A stretch of 64,000 bases of DNA. Origin: a phage. The stretch lies in the sequence record PX969468.1; one strand, given 5' to 3'. The notes beneath the pieces are model-generated. The model had not been told where the DNA came from. It worked only from the letters and a program-made list of their open reading frames with translations, and did no database searches. Below are positions 9,416 to 64,000 of this stretch, one piece after another. Position 1 is the stretch's first letter. Each line of letters opens with the position of its first letter. Made by a program: the position numbers and the translations under genes.

Positions 9416-10006
9416 ATGTTTTTATGGGAAAGGCCTAGATACCTTCCAGATATTAGATTGGAGCTGCTGGCAGATATTGTTACGTTTAAAAGTCCGTTTA
9501 CAGGTAAAACGCAAAAAGTGACCTATGCCACACCTAACTGGAAAGGCACTTTGACGGTTTCCAATATCAGCGAGTCACAGCTGCTAGAGCTTAAGAGCTT
9601 TGTTGATCAGGTGTATAAAGATGGGAACATTTTTCTTATTAAAACGTACGGTCACTCAGTAACAGCTAATGAGCCAATCGCCCTTGGGCCTACTGGTAAC
9701 GACGATTTTTTGAAGACGGTCGGATGGGAGCCAAACAGAGACATAGCCAGAGCTGGGGATAAAATATCTGTCAATGATGAATTGAAAGTGGTAACAGCTC
9801 CAGTGCGCAGCGATGGTGTTGGGTCTGCTGTCATAAGCATATCCCCAAGACTTAGAAAACCTATTGCCGCAGGGGACACTATGAAGATAATAACTCAATC
9901 CCCAAAGGGTAGGTTTCATATCAGAGATATTTATAAAATTAAGCAAAAAGTCGATGCTATGCAAAAAGGTGATAATATAGTTATCAACTTCTTTGAGGAT
10001 TTCTAA
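9416..10006 (+). CDS. hypothetical tail/baseplate protein
   Basis: 196-aa ORF with RBS (ggagg) in structural operon; weak resemblance of KGTLTVSNISES to lambda gpL-type motif, not relied upon. Confidence 0.35.
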   Translation: MFLWERPRYLPDIRLELLADIVTFKSPFTGKTQKVTYATPNWKGTLTVSNISESQLLELKSFVDQVYKDGNIFLIKTYGHSVTANEPIALGPTGNDDFLKTVGWEPNRDIARAGDKISVNDELKVVTAPVRSDGVGSAVISISPRLRKPIAAGDTMKIITQSPKGRFHIRDIYKIKQKVDAMQKGDNIVINFFEDF

Positions 10007-61858: not shown

Positions 61859-62181
61859 CAGAGATCATCGTTTCAACTGCAGGGTATGTATTCCTGACAA
61901 TCATTGCGCTGGCTATTCTGGTGGCGGTGTATGGATTTGTTATCCTGCCCATTCTTGAGACATTTAGTTTGTGTCGGTGTTGGAGAAAAGCTTACGGTCC
62001 ACAACCATGGAAGGACTGGCCCCACCTGGTGCGCTTAGCGTTCTCTTATGCTTACGATCACTCCAGCAGTGCATGCATAACCGGATACCACGCCCACAAC
62101 TGGAGCTGGGAAGGGTTGAGGAAATGGAATGTTACAAAGACCATACCTCTGCGCATGTACAAAGGAAAAAGGAGGGATTGA
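61855..62181 (+). CDS. small membrane protein
   Basis: N-terminal hydrophobic segment GYVFLTIIALAILVAVYGFVILPIL. Confidence 0.35.
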   Translation: MTEIIVSTAGYVFLTIIALAILVAVYGFVILPILETFSLCRCWRKAYGPQPWKDWPHLVRLAFSYAYDHSSSACITGYHAHNWSWEGLRKWNVTKTIPLRMYKGKRRD

Positions 62182-62825
62182 TGGGGATACCTGTTAAAGA
62201 CAGAAAAATATGTGGTCGTGGAGTAAACGATTTAAAAGACAAAGTCCCAATGTACCAATCTGTTAATGGTAAGAGAGTACCAGAACCTCACTATGCTACA
62301 TGGAAAGCATTATTCCAGAGGTGCTACGGCGATAACTCAAAGTACCATACAGGTTGTGAAGTTGTAGAAGATTGGTGGTTGTTCTCAGAATTCTGGAAAT
62401 GGATGGATACACAAGAGTGGAAAAGAGACGCTAAGAAGTTCACTCTTGACAAAGACCTGAAAATCCCCGGAAACAGAATATACTCCCCAGAAACATGTAT
62501 GTTTGTTCCACCACAAATAAACACCTTATTTGGCATAAGACAGGCAGCACGAGGGGATTTACCTTTGGGTGTGACACTTAGAAAAGATGTAAACAAGTAT
62601 CTCGTGCATTGTCATCAAGATGGAAAAATTGTTCATGGTGGTCATTTCGATGATCCGCAGATAGCACACAAGGTGTGGCAAGAAATGAAACTTGAGGAGA
62701 TGAAGCTTCAAGCTATTAAAAACAAAGATGAGATTTGGCTGTTCGCCATTAAACGTGCAATAACTATCCTTGAGAATGATTTGAAAAATAATAAGGAGAC
62801 TATAACATTGGTGAAATTTATTTAA
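62181..62825 (+). CDS. AP2-domain protein, homing-endonuclease-like architecture
   Basis: ATG at 62181 after AAAGGAGGGA (ATGA overlap); C-terminal AP2-like segment GVTLRKDVNKYLVHCHQDGKIVHGGHFDDPQIAHKVWQE; upstream part of the 61971 ORF judged non-coding. Confidence 0.45.
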   Translation: MGIPVKDRKICGRGVNDLKDKVPMYQSVNGKRVPEPHYATWKALFQRCYGDNSKYHTGCEVVEDWWLFSEFWKWMDTQEWKRDAKKFTLDKDLKIPGNRIYSPETCMFVPPQINTLFGIRQAARGDLPLGVTLRKDVNKYLVHCHQDGKIVHGGHFDDPQIAHKVWQEMKLEEMKLQAIKNKDEIWLFAIKRAITILENDLKNNKETITLVKFI

Positions 62826-62889
62826 GATATTTATGGTGGTATTTATTTTAAAATTATAAAAATTTTAGGTGATGAGGGAAAATATGTAA

Positions 62890-63340
62890 TGGATTTTCCC
62901 TTATTTATCAGATATTTGCAGATATTTGGAAATCCTTAGAAAATCAGAAAATGGATCGAAAACTAAAATGGATTTTTCAGAGTAGGCGCGACAAGCTGAA
63001 TAACTCATCCTATCGTTTGCACCATATTCCAGGCCACCATTATAGATTTCCCACACATGCTAACCTCCCTCTACTAGAACTTCCTCCACTTACCCTTGAC
63101 CTTCTATGGTAACAATCTAACCACTATCTTGAAGTTGCGGTGCAGCTTTCCAGGTACTCGATCTACTTTTCATTTCAGGGCTTGGATTTTCTGAAAATTT
63201 TTCTCGATAAATTTCTCAGTACTCGATCTGTTTTTCGTTTTCTGAATCGGATTTTCTGGAAATCGTTCCGGATCTAGGCCTGAAATTTTTAGGGACGAAA
63301 TCGATTTTTCGTTTTCAGAAATGGATTTTTAAAATTTCTA
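62890..63340. repeat. AT-rich array of direct repeats and ATTTTC/GAAAAT palindromes (iteron-like)
   Basis: tandem cagatatttg x2 (62908-62927); ~66-bp units at about 63150 and 63216 each containing agtactcgatct...ggattttctgRaaat; palindrome attttc-tg-gaaaat at 63185-63197. Confidence 0.6.
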
Positions 63341-63442
63341 TATGGGAATATTTTAGTGGATACTATTTTATAGGAAATTGTTACGGAGGGTAATTAGCGT
63401 GCTAATTAAATTTATTAAATGCGAGGAGTTCTCATTTAGAAT

Positions 63443-63461
63443 TTTGAATGATAATCATTCT
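63443..63461. promoter_or_regulatory. Fur-box-like palindrome, copy 1 (15/19 to GATAATGATAATCATTATC)
   Basis: ttgAATGATAATCATTcTC. Confidence 0.3.
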
Positions 63462-63578
63462 CGTTTGCAGAATAACGGGCAGGCCCGGTGATTGTCTCCC
63501 GGCCCCTACTGCCCCGGCTTGTTATTATAGTAACACACAGGACAAAGAAAGCAAGAAGTTTTTGCATAAATTTTTAGA

Positions 63579-63597
63579 CGATAATGATAATCGTTCT
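63579..63597. promoter_or_regulatory. Fur-box-like palindrome, copy 2 (17/19 to GATAATGATAATCATTATC)
   Basis: GATAATGATAATCgTTcTC; both copies followed by ...tgcag and a GC-rich segment ccggtgRttgtctccc. Confidence 0.35.
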
Positions 63598-63675
63598 CAT
63601 TTCATGCAGCGCCCATCCCCGGTGGTTGTCTCCCCCGTCACCGGTGCCTGCCGTCCTTTCGATATGTATATTGTG

Positions 63676-63998
63676 CCACCTGGCGGGGCCGCTGTCAACA
63701 CTTTTCAAAAAATTTTTTCTAACCTGATGCGCTAACCGCTGCAACCTGGCGGGGCCAGCCTGGCAGGACCTAACTGACCAGGTAGGGGAGAATGAAGGCT
63801 TGCAAACCTGGTGGGCCTATGCTATAGGATAGGTAACAATTGAAGAGGAGGTACAAAAAATGAAAGGTAATATATGATCCCCCTGGAAAATGTAGCTATT
63901 AATGACACTGAGGCTATCGCCCTGGTTGAAAAGGCTATGGCGGGAGCGTTGGAACATAAAGAAGAGTACGAAAAAATGATGGTTAACCTGGCAGGGGC
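63676..63998. repeat. GC-rich iterons AACCTGG(C/T)(G/A)GGG(C)C, four copies
   Basis: ccacctggcggggcc (about 63676), caacctggcggggcc (about 63741), aaacctggtgggcc (about 63802), aacctggcagggg (about 63984). Confidence 0.5.
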
Positions 63999-64000
63999 GG
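63873..64000 (+). CDS. hypothetical protein, 5' partial (runs off window end), preceded by 5-codon micro-ORF
   Basis: ATG at 63873 opens MIPLENVAINDTEAIALVEKAMAGALEHKEEYEKMMVNLAGA...; GAGGAGG RBS serves an upstream MKGNI micro-ORF (63859-63876) overlapping the start. Confidence 0.3.

Follow-up and report, generated by a model that had tools for sequence, protein, structure and literature searches.

Introduction

The closest described counterpart of the region treated here is Repeat Region 3 of phage T5, a 1.2-kb untranslated region situated 7.9% from the left end of the genome and proposed to be the site of the injection stop signal; the preprint reporting this treats DnaA boxes and never mentions Fur (bioRxiv 10.1101/866236). 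In the genome paper of phage rV5, a grey box was labelled 'non-coding' and the origin could not be defined (PMC3606486). Regarding the genome ends of phages of this group, a 459-bp terminal repeat was reported for Gotham, the ends being inferred from sequencing coverage (PMC7471380), and a 514-bp direct terminal repeat (DTR) for the Mydovirus KPP-1 (PMC9862379). The present work deals with positions 62826–63872 of a 64,000-nucleotide stretch of the phage sequence record PX969468.1 (the whole stretch being denoted here as the window), a non-coding region of about 1 kb that will be referred to as the hub. A first-pass annotation had described three classes of repeats within it and had proposed that it could be a replication origin, a packaging site or terminal-repeat boundary, or a regulatory hub. 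The reading that we favor, although tentatively, is that the hub may be an end-proximal control region, in which an array of operators of the host Fur type is coupled to leftward promoter/hairpin modules, and that it could represent the counterpart of the first-step-transfer boundary of T5.

A conserved non-coding region inside the left genome end

The window belongs to a Vequintavirus (rV5/FFH2-like) genome, and about 120 records of rV5/FFH2-like Escherichia phages align with the region and its flanks at 91–98% identity. The alignment of most of these relatives begins only at position 62921, and the left border of the non-coding stretch in PX969468.1 is set by the insertion of an HNH-endonuclease-like open reading frame (ORF) that most relatives lack (Table 1). 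This ORF matched PHROGs, while a Pfam search gave no match. HNH genes inserted in or beside equivalent repeat regions were also found in PVP-SE1, Hena1, the locus L132 and T5.

The non-coding nature of the stretch, as initially claimed, was confirmed: its ORFs are short and unconserved across six aligned Vequintavirus genomes, and codon periodicity is absent, with substitutions at the three codon positions amounting to 27/29/31 in the variable part, and to 7/7/7 and 3/6/9 in the conserved parts. A coding role for a 95-residue ORF (63448–63735) and for a 51-residue ORF on the minus strand was rejected on the basis of the lack of codon periodicity, the presence of frame-breaking indels and the absence of these ORFs from some relatives. 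The annotations of the relatives conflict across the hub, where small 'hypothetical proteins' have been called, such as ORF179–181 in FFH2 or six calls in NHEP1 (loci L001, L152 and L154). These calls are probably spurious, and recognizing the hub as non-coding corrects the annotation of several of these genomes. A tRNA scan of the region yielded none, and with the Rfam 15 covariance models no match came near the gathering score, either in the window region or in the seven related loci examined.

Read from left to right, the hub contains a terminator-like hairpin, an AT-rich array of three repeats of about 70 bp, two tandem modules and a set of GC-rich promoter-spacer repeats. It divides a co-directional upstream gene block from about 28 small genes transcribed toward the left terminus. 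This architecture is kept across Vequintavirinae and Phapecoctavirus. Within the genus, the segments 62925–62985 and 63150–63700 are near-invariant in the six genomes, and between them lies a fast-evolving spacer. A sensitive blastn search into other genera (Seunavirus, Mydovirus, Certrevirus, Henunavirus and Phapecoctavirus) recovered only positions ~63402–63555, that is, box 1 and the GC-rich element that follows it, in records that mostly carry no annotated feature there or only small hypothetical-protein calls; read individually, these loci display the same overall layout as the window. The designation of regulatory hub fits this picture, since the region combines conserved promoter-like sites and a terminator-like hairpin with arrays resembling the sites of host factors.

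The position of the hub with respect to the genome ends could be established in two phages. The Gotham record opens with the terminal repeat (positions 1–459), and window positions 62921–64000 correspond to Gotham 11,845–10,803, which places the boxes described below at 11.2–11.3 kb, or 8.2–8.3% of the genome. In KPP-1 the DTR lies at 116.3–116.8 kb and the hub at 125.0–125.2 kb. Consequently, the notion that the hub marks a packaging (pac) site or the boundary of a terminal repeat, which could draw on its repeat-rich non-coding DNA and on the recurrence of the same type of palindrome at the true terminus, is refuted, given that the hub is found 10.8–11.8 kb inside the left end of Gotham and ~8.8 kb away from the KPP-1 DTR.

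Table 1. Features of the hub and its borders (window coordinates, except for the last row).
Feature	Position	Strand	Basis and remarks
HNH-endonuclease-like ORF	62181–62825	+	PHROG 953 'HNH endonuclease', E=2e-64; insertion bordering the hub on the left
Terminator-like inverted repeat AGGGAAAAT-N9-ATTTTCCCT	62872–62904		Repeat I10; T-rich tail; ends the upstream plus-strand unit
Two copies of GATATTTG and block of phased GAAAAT/GGATTTT A-tracts	62909–62985	+	Tandem Repeats Finder hit at 62909–62928; near-invariant in six genomes
Spacer	62986–63150		Poorly conserved, non-coding, fast-evolving; 87/165 columns variable, by codon position 27/29/31
Three tandem AT-rich repeats, 65–74 bp	63144–63345	+	Repeat family D1 (63144–63329); nearly invariant in the genus
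Inverted repeat TAATTAGC-GT-GCTAATTA	63396–63413		Sequence; kept in the genus with one arm change
Weak Fur-like box 0	63418–63436		Deviates from the phage box consensus at 4 positions; distance to box 1 exactly 29 bp
Fur-like box 1, AATGATAATCATTCTCGTT	63447–63465		9-1-9 palindrome; 17/19 to AATGATAATCATTATCATT
GC-rich inverted-repeat element 1	63474–63520	-	Cross-genus alignment; core CCGGTGATTGTCTCC at 63485–63499
Predicted leftward promoter P_L2, TTGCTT-N16-TACTAT	63554–63527	-	Cross-genus alignment; weak in the window
Fur-like box 2, AATGATAATCGTTCTCATT	63583–63601		17/19 to AATGATAATCATTATCATT; overlapping 63580–63598 is 17/19 to classical GATAATGATAATCATTATC
GC-rich inverted-repeat element 2	63608–63650	-	Repeat families D9 and D11, cross-genus alignment; core CCGGTGGTTGTCTCC at 63619–63633; paralogue of element 1
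Predicted leftward promoter P_L1, TTGACA-N17-CACAAT with TG	63698–63670	-	Promoter scan; strongest promoter-like site in the region
A6T6 tract CAAAAAATTTTTTC	63704–63718		Directly upstream of the P_L1 -35; UP-element-like; palindrome I1
GC-rich motif copies 2 and 3 (ACCTGGCGGGGCC, GCCTGGCAGGACC)	63742–63771	+	Preceded by CTGCAA, without a -10
Candidate weak rightward promoter, TTGCAA-N17-TATAGG	63800–63828	+	Sequence; GC-rich copy 4 in its spacer; not in the promoter scan output
Start of the first downstream small gene	63861–63878	+	Alignment, ORF lists
Example palindrome arrays in IMG/VR loci	L028 2340–2760; L059 5760–5920; L011 5690–5950; L022 1–30; L070 1–30

Fur-like boxes in the hub

The boxes were scanned with the consensus AATGATAATCATTATCATT, while membership of the Fur class was judged against the classical form GATAATGATAATCATTATC and the 9-1-9 form AATGATAATnATTATCATT. 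Boxes 1 and 2 are the sole sites with three or fewer mismatches to AATGATAATCATTATCATT in the entire 64 kb, where 0.03 would be expected by chance. The earlier description of two units, each opening with a Fur-box-like palindrome, was therefore correct, the spacing between both boxes being 136 bp. The consensus of the phage boxes, AATGAKAAT-N-ATTMTCATT, is a 9-1-9 inverted repeat, and the published model for the binding of a single Fur dimer is likewise a 19-bp 9-1-9 inverted repeat (PMC2189734). In addition, positions 63449–63467 of the window are identical in 19 out of 19 bases to the Fur site in the E. coli mntH promoter, which lies 55 bp ahead of mntH, is found in 3938 of the 5426 complete E. 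coli genomes and has been catalogued as a Fur cluster of 19.9 bits at position -56 (PMC2189734). On sequence, then, the sites at 63447 and 63583 match Fur operators.

In the other genera the number of boxes ranges from one to six, with an exact centre-to-centre distance of 29 bp in GAP31, 4MG, Mydo, CB7, F2M1E, anhysbys and ZCKP1, and 4MG has a perfect 7-1-7 site (TGATAATCATTATCA). When the complete FFH2 genome is considered, clusters of boxes are confined to two non-coding regions: the hub and a convergent junction at 105.4–106.0 kb. It was also observed that the Gotham genome starts 9 nt before a Fur-like box, two further boxes being found within the terminal repeat (Gotham 1–170; FFH2 105,384–105,966), and that a run of TGTTTACA repeats follows the Vequintavirus terminal repeat. 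No Fur homologue was detected in the phage by tblastn with an approximate E. coli Fur query. The literature searched contained no paper connecting Fur boxes with rV5-like phages or T5, and Fur-box arrays, either as a conserved hub element of virulent phages or at the T5 stop region, appear to be undescribed.

Since each genome carries several boxes close to the consensus, gathered in two clusters, it may be asked whether they act as a decoy. In such a scenario the boxes would soak up host Fur as the phage genome is copied, thus derepressing iron uptake to the benefit of iron-dependent ribonucleotide reductases, and their position in the hub would be incidental. FFH2 does encode class I and class III ribonucleotide reductases, and arrays of up to ~12 boxes exist in other phages among the matches listed in the contig scan described below. 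On the other hand, the hub contains three boxes and the terminus about four, which is little in comparison with cellular Fur numbers. Moreover, the exact 29-bp phasing, the constant location of the boxes beside the GC-rich element and their preference for genome ends and terminase genes suggest a local role in cis instead, so that we consider a decoy function distinctly unlikely.

The motif array at the T5 injection-stop region and in other viral contigs

In T5 (AY587007.1), Repeat Region 3 contains boxes of the same type at 9473, 9508, 9531, 9577 (AATGAGAATCATTATCATT, 18/19 to the Fur consensus) and 9612. These sites (9473–9631) carry annotation as copies 1–4 of direct repeat C and as palindromes E, G and I, and they adjoin both the nick at 7.9% and the shear point calculated for first-step transfer (9618). 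The number of 11-mers common to T5 Repeat Region 3 and the hubs is 5–14, versus 0.8 in controls, and the shared strings include GAAAAATTTTT and ATTCGCATTCAG. A perfect 7-1-7 Fur motif was additionally noticed at T5 233–247, which is 233 bp from the left end and inside dmp.

The palindrome is not confined to these phages. Scanning of IMG/VR contigs with the exact palindrome yielded at least 120 loci, of which 118 of those listed are not rV5-like; the figures that follow refer to the matches listed. At least 118 unrelated viral contigs, with GC contents from 0.21 to 0.58, carry the palindrome, often arrayed (examples in Table 1): further boxes are found within 200 bp in 61 of the 118 non-rV5-like loci, and arrays reach ~12 boxes. 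It occurs within 300 bp of a contig end in 13 of 43 whole contigs, when 3.9 would be expected (p ~8e-5), and terminase subunits are enriched among the ORFs downstream of it. Several of the contigs bearing it are T5-sized. The recurrence of the palindrome in so many unrelated contigs over such a broad range of GC favors a conserved host protein over a phage protein as its ligand.

This consideration is relevant to a different explanation, namely that the palindromes serve as operators for a protein of the phage itself, either an early repressor or a factor associated with the terminase, and only look like Fur boxes, the hub being an early-promoter region composed of mobile promoter plus stem-loop cassettes similar to PeSLs, the promoter/stem-loop cassettes of T4-type phages. 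The three copies of the promoter and GC-rich hairpin described below, one of them co-directional with genes, would agree with this idea, as would a deletion between GC-rich repeats in phage S127 and the location of boxes at the terminal-repeat start and upstream of terminase genes in other phages. However, the box is almost invariant across genera whose flanks no longer align, a lineage-specific protein would not explain its recurrence in unrelated phages of very different GC, and one of the boxes shares a stretch of 19 identical bases with a chromosomal Fur site. Operators for a phage protein are, in our opinion, an unlikely explanation.

Leftward promoter modules and a possible role for Fur

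The boxes form part of a module that, read leftward, consists of a promoter, a GC-rich inverted repeat whose core (GGAGACAAWCACCGG on the minus strand) is fixed, and one or two Fur-like boxes. The latter sit at about +63 to +92 relative to the predicted promoters P_L1 and P_L2. The spacer of P_L1 has a GC content of 0.88, the highest among the 87 promoter-like sites of the window, and an equivalent minus-strand promoter-like site with a GC-rich spacer was found in all nine loci examined from other genera. P_L2, situated between the two units, has stronger counterparts in these genera (TTGCAA/TTGATC-N16-17-TATATT/TATTAT), and its position is among the best minus-strand matches in seven of the nine loci, the -35 element falling under the threshold of the scan in two Phapecoctavirus loci and in the window.

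In FFH2, a third copy of the promoter and GC-rich element, with core CCCGGTGATTGTCTCC, was observed at 108,050–108,200, co-directional with the genes; it is followed by TTGACA-TCTGCCAGGGGGTGGGG-TAACAT, a promoter with a GC-rich spacer. In other genera, the -35 of the second leftward promoter is immediately preceded by TCTTTACAAATCTTTACAAAT (L003 2618–2640, L006, L005 and L009), containing on the reverse strand a perfect GTAAA-N5-GTAAA, which we take to be the CpxR box consensus and which is degenerate at window positions 63560–63580.

From this arrangement we infer the binding of Fur, the firing of the promoters and the effect of gating as follows. Host Fur dimers would occupy the boxes on the entering and replicating phage DNA, Fur being the only factor that the very different palindrome-bearing phages would have in common. 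Bound Fur would then lie ~60–90 bp downstream of the two leftward promoters, between them and the repeat array, where it would gate leftward non-coding transcription, and possibly the transit of DNA, at the hub boundary. In T5, the palindromes arrayed at the first-step-transfer boundary would follow the same cis-logic.

Several observations weigh against this interpretation. In E. coli, overlapping at intervals of 6 bp, and not a separation of 29 bp, is the usual arrangement of Fur sites (PMC2189734), and the partners offset by 6 bp in the hub are only weak (63441 and 63577, with four mismatches each). The boxes lack a convincing overlapping promoter: the promoter-like hexamers overlapping them reach only 8/12, and the rightward TTGAAT-N18-CAGAAT has an unconserved -11 position. 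The GC-rich elements have weak fold z-scores and an ambiguous transcribed strand, and no iron-related genes were found beside the palindrome in the other viral contigs among the matches listed. With respect to T5, its repeated unit is chiefly the half-site AAATGAGAATCATT, which means that a different protein could be involved, and the paired DnaA boxes of T5 type are absent from the hub. A tblastn search of FFH2 with the T5 pre-early proteins, which speaks at the sequence level only, found no homologues of A1, A2 or dmp below E=0.1. Finally, the terminal repeat measures 459 bp and not 10 kb, so a two-step transfer of the T5 type is not implied; to our knowledge, no report describes two-step DNA transfer in rV5-like phages.

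A broader proposal, which as a whole we judge to be unlikely, would consider Fur-palindrome arrays as a widespread and so far unrecognised cis-element of virulent phages that marks end-proximal control points: the T5 injection-stop region, the hub and the terminal-repeat start in the rV5 group, and the region upstream of terminase genes. Under this proposal, rV5-like phages would gate their entry or early expression according to the iron state of the host through Fur bound at the hub, a checkpoint reminiscent of that of T5 but without A1 and A2.

Phages related to rV5, PVP-SE1 and phAPEC8 are widely used as candidates for therapy and biocontrol, and if the host iron regulator does dock on the hub, infection would depend on iron status, iron being limiting in the gut and in infected tissue. 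Similarly, the mechanism of the T5 pause is still unsettled, with DnaA as the current proposal, and the Fur hypothesis offers a directly testable alternative.

AT-rich repeats and the case for a replication origin

The left part of the hub has a GC content of 0.34 (62826–63417), compared to 0.445 for the whole window. The inverted repeat at its left end folds as RNA with -15.3 kcal/mol (z=-3.15 on the plus strand and z=-2.0 on the minus strand) and possibly terminates transcription in both directions. The motifs of the A-tract block that follows it are recognisable in Seunavirus (4MG) and Certrevirus (CB7). Each unit of the ~70-bp array opens with GGTACTCGATCT (63153 and 63218, the third copy being degenerate), followed by a T-rich run, GGATTTT (63184, 63249 and 63323) and an A/T tract; exact and one-mismatch copies of GGTACTCGATCT are restricted to 63144–63345. 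Three ~70-bp units with GGTWCTCGATC are found in 4MG, and at least seven copies of GGKTCTCGATC in CB7, such that the direct repeats shared across genera are GGTNCTCGATC units within three ~70-bp AT-rich repeats, in variable copy number. The AT-rich direct repeats of the first-pass annotation are thus real, but the perfect ATTTTC-N2-GAAAAT palindromes that it also listed are not: there is a single ATTTTC-N1-GAAAAT (63186), along with five direct copies of GGATTTT.

The third class of repeats, four copies of the GC-rich 'iteron' AACCTGGCGGGGCC, stood only in part, as two exact 13-mers are present (63678 and 63744) and the remaining matches are three degenerate ones (63758, 63806 and 63986), the last falling in coding DNA. 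Window-wide, AACCTGGCGGGGCC has 14 matches versus 8.2 expected, and it is therefore notable only for its local clustering. These elements proved to be the wrong repeats for an origin: copy 1 is the 17-bp spacer of P_L1, copy 4 lies in the spacer of the weak rightward site, and S127 (BCL3) carries a 49-bp deletion (window 63768–63816) between two GC-rich CCTGG(Y)RGG repeats, which suggests recombination between them. By sequence, the 'iterons' are mostly promoter-spacer motifs. Copies 2 and 3 are a candidate promoter remnant or regulator site, the corresponding CB7 sequence being TTGACA-ACCTGGCCGGGCCGGGC-CACAAT. The candidate weak rightward promoter is dispensable, with its -35 deleted in S127 and its -10 damaged in NHEP1.

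The AT-rich array itself allows an origin to be conceived in another way. In this alternative, the two leftward promoters, which have no gene ahead of them, would fire into the AT-rich repeats, opening or priming a transcription-activated origin, while GGTNCTCGATC would bind a phage initiator and Fur would act as a modulator. The promoters do aim at an AT-rich, A-tract-rich array whose direct repeats persist in other genera, in differing copy numbers, and rV5, in which the origin was not located, possesses a primase-helicase of the T7 type together with a polymerase of family A (PMC3606486). Yet the region contains no DnaA box (TTWTNCACA), and its four GATC sites per kb equal the window average, with no cluster. 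No similarity to plasmid origins was found, save for one misfiled phage record, and the annotation of the flanks examined lists no initiator gene. The 65–74-bp repeat spacing is unlike that of classical iterons, while the GC skew tracks only the direction of transcription. Furthermore, the T5 region sharing these motifs is not regarded as an origin; the T5 origins are central (bioRxiv 10.1101/866236). Weakened by the T5 parallel and by the missing marks of an origin, this alternative keeps some weight because the promoters point into the AT-rich repeats and the replisome is T7-like, and we consider it quite improbable.

Additional observations

The possibility that units 1 and 2 encode a small structured RNA was rejected, as the fold z-scores are only -0.7 to -1.9 and the evidence from wobble pairs as to the strand conflicts between genera. 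For element 1, whose stems vary between genera around the fixed core, the fold z is only -0.7. Other genera present, in place of unit 2 of the window, a conserved element of ~95 nt (CTACCGGCGATCCACCTTCC...GGGGTGGCG; L003 2650–2745, L002 2690–2780 and equivalents), in which one base pair covaries cleanly (A:U in nine cases and G:C in five). This element has no Rfam match, contains CU-rich, anti-Shine-Dalgarno-like stretches and might form a pseudoknot-like second and third helix.

At the right border, the first small gene beyond the hub is interrupted by a 2-nt insertion relative to FFH2, which leaves a five-codon mini-ORF and a restart at the ATG at 63875. Lastly, about 16 'Campylobacter phage' records (MG0656xx) are 95–98% identical to this E. 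coli Vequintavirus region, and the 137.6-kb 'plasmid' CP057073.1 is a Vequintavirus genome; all of these records are probably mislabelled or contaminants.

Comparison with described systems

The hub can be compared with four known systems. As in the T7 primary origin, made of two promoters and an AT-rich segment, or in the R-loop origins of T4 (oriF type), tandem promoters point into AT-rich DNA, and the replisome is T7-like; the promoters of the hub, however, are of the host sigma-70 type, and repeat arrays and Fur-like boxes are found in between. With PeSLs, to which it is likened by layout alone, the hub shares an early-type sigma-70 promoter followed by a stem-loop, the existence of several copies and signs of recombination between them, although two of the hub copies are oriented opposite to the flanking genes and linked to Fur-like boxes. 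In comparison with E. coli Fur operators, the phage boxes are not placed over a clear -35/-10 and have no iron-related gene nearby, their spacing is 29 or 136 bp rather than an overlap in steps of 6 bp, and they favor ATTCTCA over ATTATCA in one half. Both nevertheless share the 19-bp 9-1-9 inverted repeat, a 17/19 agreement with the consensus and 19 consecutive bases of the mntH site.

In the case of T5 Repeat Region 3, the differences are that the hub is devoid of DnaA-box pairs and of A1, A2 and dmp homologues, that it is located outside a 459-bp terminal repeat while the T5 region is inside one of 10 kb, that the direct-repeat sequences are unlike and that the leftward promoters of the hub have no annotated counterpart in T5. 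In contrast, both are untranslated regions of ~1–1.2 kb, better conserved than the neighbouring ORFs and located ~8% from the left end (7.8–7.9% for the T5 boxes and 8.2–8.3% for the hub, in Gotham coordinates). Both contain a AATGAGAATCATT-type palindrome array, a GC-rich hairpin, direct-repeat arrays and a GAAAAATTTTT tract, and both are accompanied by small genes toward the end, largely transcribed endward, and by HNH insertions nearby.

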